A stretch of DNA of 64,000 nucleotides from a virus. Taxonomy: Duplodnaviria > Caudoviricetes. The DNA lies in the IMG/VR virus record IMGVR_UViG_3300035676_000001; one strand, given 5' to 3'. Below are positions 7,417-40,434 of this stretch, in pieces; within the stretch, counting starts at the first letter, position 1; each line of letters begins with the position of its first letter. The notes under the pieces are model-generated. The model worked only from the letters and a program-made list of their open reading frames with translations, was not told the origin of the DNA and did not search any database. Position numbers and translations under genes: made by a program.

Positions 7417-8407
7417 AAATGCACATATCCTCAACTAATTGTTTAAAAGAAGTCTTAGGTTCCCAACCTAGTTTTTCCTTTGCCTTAGTGGCATCACCTA
7501 ATAAAGTCTCTACTTCAGCAGGTCGAAAATATTTAGGGTTTACCTTAATAACGGTTCTACCAGTATTTTTATCAATACCAATCTCATCTAGCCCTTCACC
7601 TTCCCATACAATATTCATATTAAAATAAGGTGCTGCTTCCTCTACAAACTCACGAACAGAATACTGAACACCAGTAGCAATTACATAATCTTCTGGTTCG
7701 TCTTGTTGAAGCATCAACCACATTGCTTCTACAAAGTCTTTGGCGTGTCCCCAATCACGCTTTGCATTTAGATTACCAAGCTCAAGAACATCTTGAAGAC
7801 CACAAGAAATGCGTGAAAGACCTCTTGTAATTTTGCGAGTTACAAAAGTTTCTCCTCGTCTTGGAGATTCATGATTAAACAGAATACCTGTGCAAGCATA
7901 CATTCCATAGGATTCACGATAGTTCTTTGTAATCCAATAACCATAAATCTTTGCTACACCATAAGGAGAACGGGGATAAAAAGGAGTAGTTTCACGCTGA
8001 GGAATTTCTTGAACCAAACCATAAAGTTCGCTAGTAGACGCCTGGTAGATGCGTACACGGTCTTCCAGACCCAAGAGACGCACTGCTTCAAGAACACGAA
8101 GAGTTCCCACAGCATCGACATCAGCAGTGTATTCAGGCATCTCAAAGGATACCTTAACATGACTTTGAGCACCAAGATTATAAATTTCATCTGGTTGGAC
8201 TTTTTGTATAACTCTGACTATATTAGTCGAGTCTGTTAAATCTCCGTAATGTAACTTAATATTTTGATACAAATGGTCAATTCTATCAGTATTAATTGAT
8301 GAAGAGCGACGAATAATGCCGTGAACTTCATAACCTTTTTCTAAAAGAAGTTCAGCAAGATAAGAACCATCTTGACCCGTAATACCAGTAATTAGTGCTC
8401 TTTTCAT
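7406..8407 (-). CDS. gmd: GDP-mannose 4,6-dehydratase
   Basis: [41 protein letters not shown] and [16 protein letters not shown]; start ATG 8407. Confidence 0.97.
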
Positions 8408-9228
8408 ACTTCGCAATTTGTAAAATCAATTTGACCATTTCTAGTAGCCCAGATTGGATACTCTCTACCATAAGTATTCCAGACTCTCGCTTGTTCTGAC
8501 CCTACAGGAACACCAGATAATCCAGCAGAATTCCAGATAGTTTCATAAGTATCATCTTCGTGAAATGTAAAGTCGTAACTTTCAGAATAAATTTTAAGAA
8601 TAAGAGAGAGAATAGATTGATCGTGCCTATTCTCTCTAAAGATAGAATCGTTAGGAAGTTCTGAAGGACTATCATCTAAGTAATGCCCATCATCTTCCAG
8701 ACAAATATTTTTCCATTTATCAACAATTTCTCTCATCAAAGAGTTATTCTTTATAAGAAAGATACCAGAAATAATCTGCCTGGTCATCAAATACTCATCG
8801 TTTTCGTCAATAATTCTACGATAGGTATCCATCTTTGTCCATTGGATTTCAGGAAGATCCAATGTAAAAAACACGCCGTTATTATCCAAACACTCCTGAT
8901 AATATTGTTGAAGTTTTTCTAATCCGTTCTTGTTAAGTTCGCATCCAGAATCGACATAAAGAAGGACATCATCTTCAGGAATATTGGAAAGTGCCTTACC
9001 AACAAAATAAGACTTAGCAGCATAATATCCATAATACTTGCTAGGCATTCCCACACGAGGAATCATTAGAAGCTTAGCGTGTTCTTCCCAAAATTCAGTT
9101 CCTTCTAAATCACTTTCACCGAACTCTTGAATAGATTTGAATACTCCAAAATTCTCTGCTTGTTTGCGTATCCTATTCTTACCAATAGAGAAGTTATTAT
9201 CTCCAAAATAAGTCAAGTGTATATTCAT
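8404..9228 (-). CDS. putative GT-A glycosyltransferase
   Basis: LLYVDSGC (DxG/DxD-like) and [12 protein letters not shown] motif; first gene of the glycan operon. Confidence 0.5.
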
Positions 9229-13549: not shown

Positions 13550-13984
13550 TTATAAAGTGGGCATTACAGTATGTTTGGGATGTTTGCATCCTCTTGAATA
13601 TCTTCCATTTCCAATATTTTTTGATCCAAAAGTTTCAGTTAATGAATGGCAGTTTGGACACAAAACTCTAAGATTACTTGAAGTATGATTAAATGGGTCA
13701 CCATCAATGTGGTCTATATGGAGTGGAACTTTTCCAGTATTAGAATTAATTTCCGACCAACCACATTCAGAACACTTACTATTAGATTGCTCTATCAAAT
13801 AATTTCTAACATATTGCGATAGTTGAAATCCATTTCCACCCAATTCTTTACCATTCAACCATCCAAATATATATTCTTTACTTCTATAATCAGAAGAACA
13901 TCTACAAGAGCAATATTTTCCAGATTTATTTGCTGGATTATATTTAAATTGCTTATTACAATTCAAACAATTTGAAATCGCCAT
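13550..13984 (-). CDS. HNH homing endonuclease next to tRNA-Val
   Basis: N-terminal CxxC..YCSxxC; CSECG..LHIDHIDGD..N..NLRVLCPNCH. Confidence 0.88.
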   Translation of the reverse strand: MAISNCLNCNKQFKYNPANKSGKYCSCRCSSDYRSKEYIFGWLNGKELGGNGFQLSQYVRNYLIEQSNSKCSECGWSEINSNTGKVPLHIDHIDGDPFNHTSSNLRVLCPNCHSLTETFGSKNIGNGRYSRGCKHPKHTVMPTL

Positions 13985-13986
13985 AG

Positions 13987-14027
13987 TAATGTAGAGTATT
14001 TTTTGTTATTTATACAACTCTACATTA
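13987..14027 (-). promoter_or_regulatory. 11-bp inverted repeat enclosing the late promoter TATAAATA, ending 2 nt before the HNH ATG
   Basis: TAATGTAGAGT-tgTATAAATAacaaaaaat-ACTCTACATTA-ct-ATG. Confidence 0.8.
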
Positions 14028-14037
14028 AAATTTAAAA

Positions 14038-14109
14038 TGGGCAATCGCAGATTCGAACTGCGGACTTTCTGAATGTAAATCAGACACTCTACCGCTGAGT
14101 TAATCGCCC
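14038..14109 (-). tRNA. tRNA-Val(UAC)
   Basis: GGGCGAT/ATTGCCC acceptor; TCTGA-TTTACAT-TCAGA anticodon arm. Confidence 0.9.
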
Positions 14110-37733: not shown

Positions 37734-37979
37734 TTATTTTTTAATTCTATTACAAATGTCCGACATTATTGACTTTTCGTTTGCAATAATGTAGTTAAGA
37801 CCATTCTTTCTAATCTTAATATATTTATTCTTTAACAAATCTGATTTATTGGATTGAATTTCCTTATCAAGTGCAAAGTAAAAATACTTGATAAAATCAT
37901 TGAAAACATCTTTTGGTCTTGACTTTTTGGTTGTAAAAATATCAAGAACATTATTAAGGAATGCTTGAAGGTCTTTCAT
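37734..37979 (-). CDS. hypothetical protein
   Basis: 81 aa coupled ORF. Confidence 0.5.
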   Translation of the reverse strand: MKDLQAFLNNVLDIFTTKKSRPKDVFNDFIKYFYFALDKEIQSNKSDLLKNKYIKIRKNGLNYIIANEKSIMSDICNRIKK

Positions 37980-39109
37980 ATCAAAAACATTCCAGGTTGT
38001 GCTTCCAAATAATTTCTTGGATAAAATCTGTACATTTTTCCTGCTGCAGTAGTTGAACTTGCAACTTCCATTTTATATCGTATCTGAATAATCAAATTAC
38101 TATTTCCAGATAATTTTGTTCCATCAGAATTTGAACGATAGATTTCAATTTTTGGGTCTCCCGATGCATTTATTCTAGCATTATATCTAGCGTTTGCAAG
38201 AATATCCCTAAACTGACGGTCGGCAACTCTTGTTTTGACTCTACCATCTCCAGTAAATTTAACAAGTTCGGTATTAACATTTCTAGAAAGACCGTAGATA
38301 ATGTAGTCAGCAAACTTTACTTTGGTATCAGTTCTATCTGGGGTATCTAATCCTTCGTTTAACTTTTTAGCGGCATAAGCATAAACAAGTCTTGCTGCCT
38401 TTTTAAGATATTCACCACCTCCAGTTTCTTTTGCGTTATCTCTAGAGGCATATTTTTTTGTGAATACTTCTTTATCAAAAAATTCATCAATAAAGTTCTG
38501 ATAATTATTAGCAACTGGGGAAACATCTAATCCCATTTCACTAAAGATATTCAAAAATTTATCAAATCCCTGACCAGATACTTGGTGAAATTGCTCACCA
38601 CCATCAACTTTTAATGAGTAATCAATATTCCTAAATCTTTTATCAGGATTTGTTGGAGAATTAACTTCTATCTTAACATCCGCTTTTGTTCCTTTTTGGT
38701 CTTCTGTTCCAGCAGCAGTTACTCGAATAAAATCTTCACGAGCATTGATAGAAAGACCTCTTGCTTGTGCATTAAGTCTACTATGCGAATTTACAAAGGA
38801 TACTGCGCCATTTTTTAAATCAGAAACTTTTGCCCAATTTGTTCTATCAGACAAAAAATCTTGTGCCTTTTTAGGAACGGATACAGATACGGACACTGTA
38901 TCAATTACAGCACTACCAACATCATTAACTTGCTTAACATATCCCTTCTTCATCATTTCCGTCAATACGGTATCAACATCCGAACCAGTAACTGTCGGTA
39001 GAGTCTTAGAAGATTTTGTTTTTGCTCTTTTTACAAATCTAGCGGCAACAGCAGCAGCAAAAAAAACTTCAAACAAATCACCTCTATTAGCTGATATTTT
39101 TTCCGCCAT
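37976..39109 (-). CDS. hypothetical, possible PD-(D/E)XK nuclease
   Basis: GDLFE...TKADVKI...YSLK pattern; CTAAATA at 39124-39130. Confidence 0.45.
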   Translation of the reverse strand: MAEKISANRGDLFEVFFAAAVAARFVKRAKTKSSKTLPTVTGSDVDTVLTEMMKKGYVKQVNDVGSAVIDTVSVSVSVPKKAQDFLSDRTNWAKVSDLKNGAVSFVNSHSRLNAQARGLSINAREDFIRVTAAGTEDQKGTKADVKIEVNSPTNPDKRFRNIDYSLKVDGGEQFHQVSGQGFDKFLNIFSEMGLDVSPVANNYQNFIDEFFDKEVFTKKYASRDNAKETGGGEYLKKAARLVYAYAAKKLNEGLDTPDRTDTKVKFADYIIYGLSRNVNTELVKFTGDGRVKTRVADRQFRDILANARYNARINASGDPKIEIYRSNSDGTKLSGNSNLIIQIRYKMEVASSTTAAGKMYRFYPRNYLEAQPGMFLI

Positions 39110-39130
39110 AAGACTTTTTGAAGTATTTAG

Positions 39131-39155
39131 TGCCCAAAAGAGGACTTGAACCTAT
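39131..39155 (-). pseudogene. 3' remnant (T-arm and acceptor strand) of the disrupted tRNA
   Basis: ATAGG-TTCAAGT-CCTCT-TTTGGGC-A. Confidence 0.75.
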
Positions 39156-39163
39156 ATCGACAA

Positions 39164-39246
39164 TGCTCCAGAGAAGATTTGAACTTCCACGCTTTTTAAG
39201 GCGGCGGATTCTAAGTCCGCTGTGTCTACCGTTCCACCACTGGAGC
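39164..39246 (-). tRNA. tRNA-Leu(UAG), intact, inside the HNH cassette
   Basis: GCTCCAG/CTGGAGC acceptor; GCGGA-CTTAGAA-TCCGC; variable arm; TTCAAAT. Confidence 0.92.
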
Positions 39247-39690
39247 TAAACAATTTCTATTTGAGAATGTATTAGTTTGTGTATGACAATTAGGACATAA
39301 TAATCTTAAGTTGTCGGGTCTGTTATCATATGGTTGACCGTTAATATGGTCAACTTGTAATCTTAATGGTTTTCCATTCCAAGTAGAAGGAATGCCACAT
39401 TCAAAACAAGTATTACCTATTTCTTCTATTAATAATCTATATAGAATTTCACGCTTACAAGATTTACCTTTTAAAGAAGTATATTCTAAAAGTGTTTTCC
39501 ATTTATTATATCCACCATATTGCCTAATTTTATTAGTATAATCTGGTTTGTAATCGGGAATCCATTTTTTATATCTTGCTCGTAAAGTATCTGGTTTACA
39601 ATTTAATTCTAAACATAATTGAGTTGGTGATACTCCAGACAATAAAGATTCTATTATGTATTCTTTTTTGTCGTCAAGGTCTTTTCTCAT
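39226..39690 (-). CDS. HNH homing endonuclease whose last 7 codons lie inside tRNA-Leu
   Basis: Start ATG 39690; HTH-like N-terminus; CFECG..LQVDHING..DNR.DNLRLLCPNCH; ends GCT CCA GTG GTG GAA CGG TAG. Confidence 0.88.
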   Translation of the reverse strand: MRKDLDDKKEYIIESLLSGVSPTQLCLELNCKPDTLRARYKKWIPDYKPDYTNKIRQYGGYNKWKTLLEYTSLKGKSCKREILYRLLIEEIGNTCFECGIPSTWNGKPLRLQVDHINGQPYDNRPDNLRLLCPNCHTQTNTFSNRNCLAPVVER

Positions 39691-39725
39691 AATTGGTAGA
39701 CACGCTGTATTATTTATACAAAATA

Positions 39726-39747
39726 CTACTAATTTTACCATTTGGGC
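39726..39747 (-). pseudogene. 5' remnant (acceptor strand and decayed D-arm) of the disrupted tRNA-Leu
   Basis: GCCCAAATGGTAAAATTAGTAG; GCCCAAA is the exact complement of TTTGGGC in the 3' remnant. Confidence 0.7.
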
Positions 39748-39751
39748 AAAG

Positions 39752-39824
39752 TGGAGAATAGCGGACTCGAACCGCTGACATCCTGCTTGCAAAGCAGGCG
39801 CTCTACCAACTGAGCTAATTCCCC
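39752..39824 (-). tRNA. tRNA-Ala(UGC)
   Basis: GGGGAAT/ATTCTCC acceptor; CCTGC-TTTGCAA-GCAGG. Confidence 0.93.
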
Positions 39825-39847
39825 GAAAACCCCGGAGGGTTATTTGT

Positions 39848-40024
39848 TCATTCTACTGCAGAACCAATCTTTTCGTCAAGGTCTGCAATTACATTGCGAA
39901 TATCAGCAACACGAGGAGGAACACTCAATTCATCATAAGTGTATCCTTTTTGTGCATCAAATAGAACTTGACGAACTGCTGCTGCAGCACGAATATCGAT
40001 TTTTACAGATACAGATTTAGCCAT
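39848..40024 (-). CDS. 58-aa hypothetical (below ORF-track cutoff)
   Basis: MAKSVSVKIDIRAAAAVRQVLFDAQKGYTYDELSVPPRVADIRNVI; coupled to mazG. Confidence 0.6.
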   Translation of the reverse strand: MAKSVSVKIDIRAAAAVRQVLFDAQKGYTYDELSVPPRVADIRNVIADLDEKIGSAVE

Positions 40025-40434
40025 CAGATGTCTCCTTCTTCACGATTTTCACTATAATAAACATCAAAGAAACCGTCAGGATAACGCTTCATCAGTTTAT
40101 CAATATTAGTCTGAACAACCTCATCAAAGGAAACTTCCAGAGCAATACAAGCTTGTGCAATATACCACAGAGTATCACCAAGTTCTTTAATCAGGTGAGT
40201 GCGGGTTTCTTCATTCCAGGACTTACCCTGAAAAACCATCTTCTTCACAATCTCCATAAACTCACCACCTTCGGCATTGATACCAACGGCAGCAGTCAGA
40301 AGACGCTCAATATTAGCACCCTTCTCATCCAACTGAACCATACGGTCAGAGAGAGCGAGAAAATCTTTGGATGCGTCAGAAGTGACGGCATCTACAAAGT
40401 TTTGGTATTTATCAAAATCAACTCGTTGCGTCAT
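40024..40434 (-). CDS. mazG: MazG-family nucleotide pyrophosphohydrolase
   Basis: LTAAVGINAEGGEFMEIVKK..KELGDTLWY..NIDKL..RYP. Confidence 0.92.
   Translation of the reverse strand: MTQRVDFDKYQNFVDAVTSDASKDFLALSDRMVQLDEKGANIERLLTAAVGINAEGGEFMEIVKKMVFQGKSWNEETRTHLIKELGDTLWYIAQACIALEVSFDEVVQTNIDKLMKRYPDGFFDVYYSENREEGDI

Follow-up and report, generated by a model that had tools for sequence, protein, structure and literature searches.

The 64,000 nucleotides (nt) of viral DNA analysed here as one stretch, hereafter the window, come from a member of the Duplodnaviria (Caudoviricetes; IMG/VR record IMGVR_UViG_3300035676_000001). On the minus strand, between positions 39,131 and 39,747, they carry an open reading frame (ORF) for a putative HNH endonuclease that runs into a complete transfer RNA (tRNA) gene, tRNA-Leu(UAG). 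The two genes stand between two short fragments, or stubs, which match the ends of another tRNA-Leu gene, called here the resident gene. Leader, ORF, complete tRNA and a short spacer together are called the cassette, and the tRNA-Leu that the cassette carries is called the new type. A reading of the sequence alone had named the elements of this locus, and inspection of the letters, ARAGORN, Rfam and Pfam found all of them in place on the minus strand. Two limits have to be corrected. The spacer has 8 nt (39163-39156) and not 9. For the 3' stub, the proposed end at 39131 holds, and the start, set by identity to the intact gene, moves from 39155 to 39153. In minus-strand order, the elements are the following:

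39751..39824, minus strand: tRNA-Ala(UGC), left neighbour of the resident tRNA-Leu (ARAGORN; 73.6 bits with the Rfam tRNA model, whose gathering score is 29 bits).
39726..39747, minus strand: 5' stub of 22 nt, beginning GCCCAAATGG at 39747; its first 10 nt are identical to the resident tRNA-Leu(UAG).
39711..39718, minus strand: TATAAATA, the consensus of T4-type late promoters; it occupies the loop formed by the leader inverted repeat.
39691..39708, minus strand: 3' arm of the leader inverted repeat, including GTGTCTACCAATT (39703-39691); it stops 1 nt short of the ATG.
39226..39690, minus strand: HNH endonuclease ORF of 154 amino acids (aa), with ATG at 39690 and TAG at 39228-39226.
39164..39246, minus strand: intact new-type tRNA-Leu(UAG), the cassette copy (ARAGORN; Rfam 56.8 bits).
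39156..39163, minus strand: spacer of 8 nt, TTGTCGAT, which separates the new tRNA from the 3' stub.
39131..39155, minus strand: 3' stub with T-arm, 3' acceptor strand and A73, ending ...GGTTCAAGTCCTCTTTTGGGCA / ...TTTGGGCA at 39131; identical to the intact gene from 39153 on.

Three nucleotides, TTT, separate tRNA-Ala from the 5' stub. Past the first 10 nt of this stub, the following 12 nt are D-arm-like, with four transitions relative to the resident gene, and serve as the 5' arm of the leader inverted repeat. The reverse complement of the 3' arm matches the D-arm and the start of the anticodon stem of the resident tRNA at 15 of 18 positions, and that of GTGTCTACCAATT has one exact match within the window. 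At the other end of the ORF, the overlap with the tRNA amounts to 21 nt, so that the final six codons and the TAG lie inside a tRNA gene that is the sole tRNA-Leu of the 64-kilobase window.

The product of the ORF matches the Pfam HNH family PF01844 (1.5e-6, 28.7 bits for a cut-off of 21.4) and PHROG 10822 (HNH; 1e-26). The zinc and catalytic motif CxxC...DH...N...CxxCH is intact, the translation reading CFEC...DH...DN...CPNCH. Profile and residues thus identify the ORF as a predicted HNH (His-Me finger) endonuclease. The top matches among solved structures, cytochrome c-552, rest on the CxxCH motif and were discarded. With a start codon and a promoter-like site of its own, and with no match to an Rfam intron, the gene is of the free-standing kind. 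Its closest named sequence relative is hegA/F-TflIV of phage T5, as the full-length 154 aa are 36% identical to the N-terminal 140 aa of that protein. The T5 genes F-TflI/II/IV (hegA) are also HNH genes located in a tRNA region, and processing of the tRNA transcript has been suggested to reduce their expression (PMC2330249). However, hegA codes for 227 aa with an extra C-terminal part, lies after tRNA-Ile and before a protein gene, and has neither a replacement tRNA nor stubs.

When IMG/VR was scanned for the 3' stub, 51 contigs matched. In 33 of them, an intact 83-nt tRNA-Leu(UAG) stands 0-3 nt past tRNA-Ala, starts with GCCCAAATGGCGGAATTGGTAGAC and ends as the 3' stub does. The uninterrupted gene that the sequence-only reading had expected after tRNA-Ala, with these flanks, is thus found in these 33 contigs. 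Four of the 33 empty alleles (L014, L038, L042 and L043) also match the next 26 nt downstream in the window. The split allele of the window itself is carried by five contigs, and the locus is therefore polymorphic for presence or absence of the cassette, with 33 empty alleles vs. five occupied contigs and the window. Between window and intact gene, identity is exact over 10 nt at the start and 23 nt at the end. Since dozens of viral contigs carry an uninterrupted tRNA-Leu(UAG) to which the ends of the stubs are identical, the stubs are not due to chance. In between, the cassette stands in for the remainder of the D-arm and for both the anticodon arm and the variable arm of the resident gene.

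The resident and the cassette tRNA-Leu have, by inspection, the same anticodon. They differ in three of seven acceptor pairs, in three of five anticodon-stem pairs and at three positions of the anticodon loop, as well as in D-loop length and in the variable arm. The first 43 nt of the cassette tRNA are identical in 10 contigs, in several contexts. With its cloverleaf, its long variable arm, A73 and its conservation, the cassette copy has the features from which a functional tRNA-Leu is predicted.

Interrupted tRNA genes call to mind introns. The stubs could be the exons of a working tRNA-Leu, and the insert a group I or other intron that carries a homing endonuclease and is removed at the RNA level. 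Indeed, a perfect 7-base-pair acceptor stem can form between the two stubs, and endonuclease-bearing group I introns are found in bacterial and phage genes, as are group I introns in cyanobacterial tRNA-Leu (PMC3984707). However, no Rfam intron family is found in 39000-39900 with E-values up to 1, and a whole tRNA with the same anticodon lies within the insert. Moreover, the joined stubs would be devoid of anticodon and variable arms, which contradicts the reading as an interrupted tRNA. An intron is extremely improbable here.

In our view, it is quite probable from the sequence comparisons that a free-standing HNH homing endonuclease gene fused to its own tRNA-Leu(UAG) invaded a divergent tRNA-Leu gene located elsewhere in the genome. 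We infer that the HNH protein cleaves, that the new tRNA is immune and that expression of the nuclease is regulated.

Genes for tRNA-Val offer parallels. In L102, an 18-nt anticodon arm of tRNA-Val is swapped for a late promoter, an HNH gene whose product is 38% identical to that of the window, a divergent tRNA-Val and 7 nt; the intact tRNA-Val allele is present in 11 contigs. In L128, 13 nt around the anticodon of a different tRNA-Val are swapped for the same cassette type, and six contigs have the intact allele. The acceptor stems of the L102 and L128 stubs differ from each other and match those of their own intact alleles; hence, the two insertions were separate. A 10-nt 3' stub is retained in L078, and L092 has a chimeric tRNA downstream. 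In this last case, downstream of the HNH-linked tRNA-Val, there is a tRNA-like gene with a GAA anticodon loop, the 3' acceptor strand of which pairs with the upstream tRNA-Val stub and not with its own 5' end; this suggests that the T-arm of the following donor tRNA may have been the site of the right-hand junction. Considered together, the Leu split, the Val parallels and the fusion of ORF and tRNA throughout the clade point to the tRNA gene itself, and probably to its anticodon arm, as the target of the nuclease.

A search with the HNH protein gave 239 related loci, 80 of which were kept for counts. Each of the 15 closest relatives (72-100% identity) is followed immediately by a tRNA-Leu(UAG), and its ORF ends at the first base of that tRNA or 21-50 nt into it. 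More generally, the ORF overlaps a same-strand tRNA by 10-50 nt or abuts it in 55 of the 80 relatives, and the commonest partner is tRNA-Val(UAC). In a tree of 56 HNH proteins, the 11 Leu-UAG rows are in one clade (100/100) and 17 of 17 Val-UAC rows fall within one clade of 21 rows (99/95). HNH clades therefore track tRNA type in these sequences, as an association rather than as co-evolution, since related rows of the tree share labels.

In many relatives, the leader is preceded by the first 21-27 nt of a tRNA. These upstream fragments were considered as copies of the relatives' own downstream tRNA; most comparisons were non-significant, because the fragments stem from a different allele of that tRNA. 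In L116 (1240-1336), the HNH start codon comes directly after the T-loop of a nearly complete tRNA-Pro-like remnant, and a left stub can thus reach about 60 nt.

The junctions bear on how the cassette arrived. The cassettes of L003 and L006 are 99.8-100% identical to that of the window, and the downstream flank of L006 is about 99% identical. Their upstream flank, including tRNA-Ala, is 91-93% identical to the window; the differences amount to 4-13 per 100 nt and the last one is at 39765, inside tRNA-Ala, 18 nt before the cassette. This sharp boundary of exchange at the nuclease gene fits homing with one-sided co-conversion and might also have come from general recombination. It also agrees with a general pattern in which nuclease genes stand where exchange between phages begins or ends (PMC10448857). 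The flanks of the resident and donor loci are unrelated, and the sole homology on the left side is the D-arm-like stretch of the cassette leader, within which the left junction falls.

The following course of events is proposed. The unit made up of leader, ORF, whole tRNA and 8 nt would have replaced approximately positions 11-50 of the resident tRNA-Leu(UAG) next to tRNA-Ala. In a mixed infection, the donor nuclease would cut the resident tRNA-Leu, most likely in or near the anticodon arm (positions ~10-50), and the break would be repaired from the donor, at a different genome position. The left junction would be formed in the D-arm-like sequence common to the cassette leader and tRNA-Leu, and the right junction without visible homology, just beyond the donor tRNA; surviving products would be those with a complete donor tRNA. 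The tRNA would have been carried along because the ORF is fused to it, and would now be the sole supply of tRNA-Leu(UAG). Processing of this tRNA by RNase P would separate the nuclease message from its stop codon, and such a loss has already been proposed for segB/tRNA-Arg and for the T5 HNHs (PMC2330249). Four metatranscriptome runs were compared with 39100-39850 and gave contigs that span tRNA-Ala and new-type tRNA-Leu alone and run into the flanks of other phages, which makes them uninformative on expression or processing of this allele.

The window allele aside, the loci of the closer relatives mostly belong to the main tRNA cluster (tRNA-Arg, HNH, tRNA-Leu, tRNA-Gly...), with a linked tRNA of the new type or near it. 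At syntenic loci with and without the HNH gene, the difference is made by leader and ORF alone, the tRNA being undamaged. At the locus of the window, L021, L029 and L036 have a more distant HNH gene of the same clade between tRNA-Ala and an intact resident-type tRNA-Leu, and the ORF stops 17 nt inside this tRNA. The first reading had seen a mobile unit that destroys its target and supplies a substitute tRNA. Its mobile unit and substitute are backed by the empty alleles, by the Leu fusion in closer relatives and by the two Val parallels; its account of splitting has to be narrowed, since members of the clade normally sit just 5' of an intact tRNA-Leu without splitting it. The split seen here would be the outcome of an invasion of a divergent tRNA-Leu located elsewhere in the genome.

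Syntenic alleles that differ by leader and ORF alone also favour another view, in which general recombination joined the divergent tRNA-Leu genes of co-infecting phages, HNH gene and tRNA being passengers, with no cut and no evolved unit. Likewise, the new-type tRNA stands at this locus in L058, where both HNH gene and stubs are missing. Mosaicism also characterises phage tRNA regions, and the gene slot downstream has been swapped between contigs as well. On the other hand, recombination of this kind would have had to place a related HNH gene and a tRNA of the same anticodon in the middle of a resident tRNA in three independent events. Nor does it account for HNH clades that track tRNA type, or for a spacer of zero between ORF and tRNA in 55 of 80 loci, with the catalytic motif intact. 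We consider it unlikely. As for L058 itself, where the new-type tRNA-Leu directly follows the upstream tRNA (8313-8478), its state could reflect the loss of the nuclease gene after conversion, or a conversion of the tRNA only.

Some observations weigh against homing by a fused nuclease and tRNA, the explanation that we prefer. The new-type tRNA-Leu is also found without an HNH gene, in L056, where tRNA-Arg abuts it directly, and in L058, which has the locus type of the window and no stubs; hence, the sequence of the tRNA alone is no proof of immunity or dependence. In RNA contigs from two runs of two studies, the sequence that stands upstream of the L066 cassette similarly runs straight into a new-type tRNA-Leu. 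A near-isogenic empty allele was sought and none was found, the best flanks being about 90% identical. All the relatives were drawn from a single collection of metagenome-derived sequences, and many of them are related to one another. No homology is evident at the right junction, 8 nt beyond the new tRNA. Lastly, the leader of the window folds into a weak hairpin (-9.1 kcal/mol, z -1.1). The hexamer GTCGAT occurs in the spacer and, in L065 and L074, in the 5' fragments. A tandem or circular donor form was considered on this ground, but a match of this length carries too little weight and the idea was dropped.

Expression of the HNH gene is probably T4-like, with a late promoter in the loop of the leader inverted repeat, which extends to the start codon. 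TATAAATA occurs 10 times in the window, for 3.8 copies expected, and nine of the 10 are on the minus, coding strand. It is invariant in the leaders of 10 of 11 relatives. Late-promoter-like sites are found in 31 of 55 leaders (background 3.8%) and an antisense D-arm motif in 15 of 55 (background 2.8%); in both cases, the post hoc motif and the relatedness of the loci inflate p-values. The core stem, TTGGTAG with CTACCAA, is kept in 11 relatives, partly via G-U changes. Pairing is observed in 78.6% of cells in the relatives, vs. 24-52% when partner columns are slid, and covariation is modest, both sides having changed in two of 18 pairs. In L065, the leader fold reaches -22.9 kcal/mol (z -4.5). 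For RNA that begins past the promoter, no structure is predicted (-1.2 kcal/mol, z 0.09), and this allele has no Shine-Dalgarno sequence.

The origin of the 5' arm was then considered. In L065 and L074, the arm is TGGCGGAATTGGTA, an exact match to the resident tRNA. The arm of the window, TAAAATTAGTAG, has four mismatches out of 12 to the resident D-arm and is nearer to the cassette arm of L073. A D-arm-like 5' arm is also present in relatives that have no resident stub. It therefore probably came with the cassette and not from the target, which would put the crossover at about tRNA position 10; the alternative origin of TAAAATTAGTAG is decay of the resident sequence. The earlier suggestion that the cassette reuses the D-arm of its target as a repression hairpin is thus probably wrong for this clade, given the arm in stub-less relatives, the resemblance of the window arm to L073 and the weak fold. 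L102 has the antisense D-arm motif, but its minimum-energy fold pairs the motif locally and not with the D-arm of the stub. A sense arm supplied by the target in L102 is not borne out by this fold.

In T4, endonuclease genes under I-TevI-type control have a late promoter by or in a hairpin that occludes translation initiation (PMC2330249). The present leader is similar in that TATAAATA is in the loop, the 3' arm ends at the start codon and the transcript made past the promoter is predicted to be unstructured. It differs in that the arms mimic a tRNA D-arm, no Shine-Dalgarno sequence is present and the stem is weak; the likeness is one of sequence.

The inverted repeat may also be seen as a DNA operator with two D-arm-like half-sites, through which the HNH protein would repress its own late promoter in the manner of I-TevI, rather than as an RNA hairpin. 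Autorepression of its own late promoter by I-TevI provides a precedent, and both arms resemble the presumed target, the D-arm of tRNA-Leu. The weakness of the RNA hairpin in the window and the small number of covarying pairs also go in this direction. However, the hairpin of L065 is strong, and pairing held through G-U changes is relevant to RNA and not to DNA. We hold the operator to be distinctly improbable.

Of the other copies of TATAAATA in the window, one directly follows tRNA-Ser (12665-12658) and another stands at the end of a second HNH gene (13554-13547). This second gene (within 13550-14109, minus strand) codes for 144 aa with a Pfam HNH match of 1.7e-4, and shares 44% identity with the first across the HNH domain. 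It is located directly 3' of tRNA-Val(UAC) (14109-14038); it belongs to the Val-linked clade, yet it comes after its tRNA rather than before one. Here, TATAAATA (14014-14007) is in the loop of an 11-base-pair inverted repeat, GTAGAGT/ACTCTAC-like, that echoes the D-arm of tRNA-Val(UAC) (-11.9 kcal/mol, z -2.7).

In lifestyle, the closest known system is SegB of T4 and T6, a free-standing GIY-YIG homing endonuclease encoded in a tRNA gene cluster (PMC2330249; PMC13096335). In both cases, the endonuclease gene is located among phage tRNA genes. SegB cuts inside the tRNA genes of phages that lack it and drives inheritance of the donor tRNA region. The segB reading frame stops at the start of the tRNA-Arg gene that follows it; maturation of this tRNA would therefore cut the message, and a hairpin occluding the start has been proposed (PMC2330249). 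The association of SegB with tRNAs is documented across phages, including cyanophages (PMC2330249; PMC13096335). In contrast, the present nuclease is an HNH and not a GIY-YIG enzyme, and SegB recognises a T-arm common to many tRNAs, whereas each HNH clade tracks one tRNA type. Moreover, neither a split resident tRNA with stubs nor a D-arm-like leader arm has been described for SegB.

Another likeness is found in fungal mitochondria, where mORFs make gene hybrids in atp6 of Allomyces and in atp6, atp9, cox2 and nad3 of Glomus (PMC3630166). There, the endonuclease ORF brings a foreign, divergent copy of the part that it displaces, and the native part stays downstream as an unexpressed remnant (PMC3630166). 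The present locus corresponds to this pattern, as the stubs match the intact gene of relatives and the cassette tRNA is divergent; the likeness is one of mechanism and not of membership, the mORF family being defined on mitochondrial protein genes. Furthermore, mORFs swap the C-terminal part of protein genes and have LAGLIDADG or GIY-YIG enzymes. Here, a whole tRNA is supplied and stubs are left on both sides. The open-access literature yielded no description of a split tRNA gene that harbours an HNH gene joined to a whole substitute tRNA, nor of a D-arm-like leader. The parts have precedents in T4 SegB, the T5 HNHs, I-TevI-type control and the fungal mORF hybrids; the proposed combination on tRNA genes of a free-standing homing endonuclease, co-conversion and a complete substitute tRNA turned up in none of the papers found.

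Homing endonucleases usually spare the host gene, because they reside in a self-splicing intron, in an intein or at an intergenic site. The present element suggests a third solution for RNA genes: the target is destroyed and a working, divergent replacement, fused to the nuclease gene, is brought in. Tentatively, and with somewhat less than even confidence, we propose that it belongs to a large class of HNH "tRNA-swap" cassettes in phage tRNA clusters. Each clade would be devoted to one tRNA type, carry a fused, cleavage-resistant copy of it and enter any gene for that tRNA, whatever its location, via a cut in the anticodon arm and insertion of nuclease and substitute; the D-arm-like leader arm would act both as homology arm and as one component of an expression switch. 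If clades are specific for one tRNA, they would form a natural set of enzymes with predictable targets and would explain the mosaic tRNA clusters of T4-like phages and a fast exchange of phage tRNA alleles. Phage tRNA genes have been linked to escape from host defences that cut tRNAs (PMC13096335). If tRNA-swap cassettes exist as a class, they would drive fast turnover of phage tRNA alleles, and this could matter for escape from such host nucleases.

The window belongs to a T4-like cyanophage of a freshwater lineage and encodes a gp41-type helicase and MazG. At least 86% of the sampled words of this allele are present in each of 14 runs (12 studies labelled freshwater, lake or aquatic). Given this abundance in lakes, the proportions of occupied and empty alleles could be tracked in nature. 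Two further features flank the elements listed above:

39850..39879, minus strand: sigma-70-like promoter TTGACG-18-TAGAAT, upstream of tRNA-Ala, with 10 of 12 consensus positions, judged on consensus match alone.
37976..39109, minus strand: 377-aa ORF with no assigned function, starting 21 nt past the 3' stub and occupying a variable slot.

The sigma-70-like site is a candidate early promoter for a read-through RNA across the cassette; as it is upstream of tRNA-Ala, such an early RNA would contain the whole leader. The product of the 377-aa ORF is 70% identical to proteins of the Synechococcus phages Syn19, Syn2 and S-RIM8; at the matching locus of the isolates Syn19 and S-RIM8, there are no tRNAs, and megablast of 38900-40100 against isolate phages gave tRNA-Ala matches alone. 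The slot downstream of tRNA-Leu varies. The 377-aa ORF is present in the window and in L010, L024, L030 and L039 (88% aa identity), and the empty alleles L014, L038, L042 and L043 have an unrelated 364-aa ORF with the same ATG start (L014 2416-3510). A 49-nt island of 100% identity (39153-39105) separates the two replaced segments.

Genes of another kind also occur beside tRNA-Ala. ARAGORN predicts permuted genes resembling transfer-messenger RNA (tmRNA) there, at L057 4628-4927 and at L059 2859-3162 (the same as L073 1062-1365), in contigs that also have the new-type tRNA-Leu. L073 has an HNH cassette near its tmRNA-like gene. A phage tmRNA beside elements that are expected to yield stop-less messages may deserve attention.

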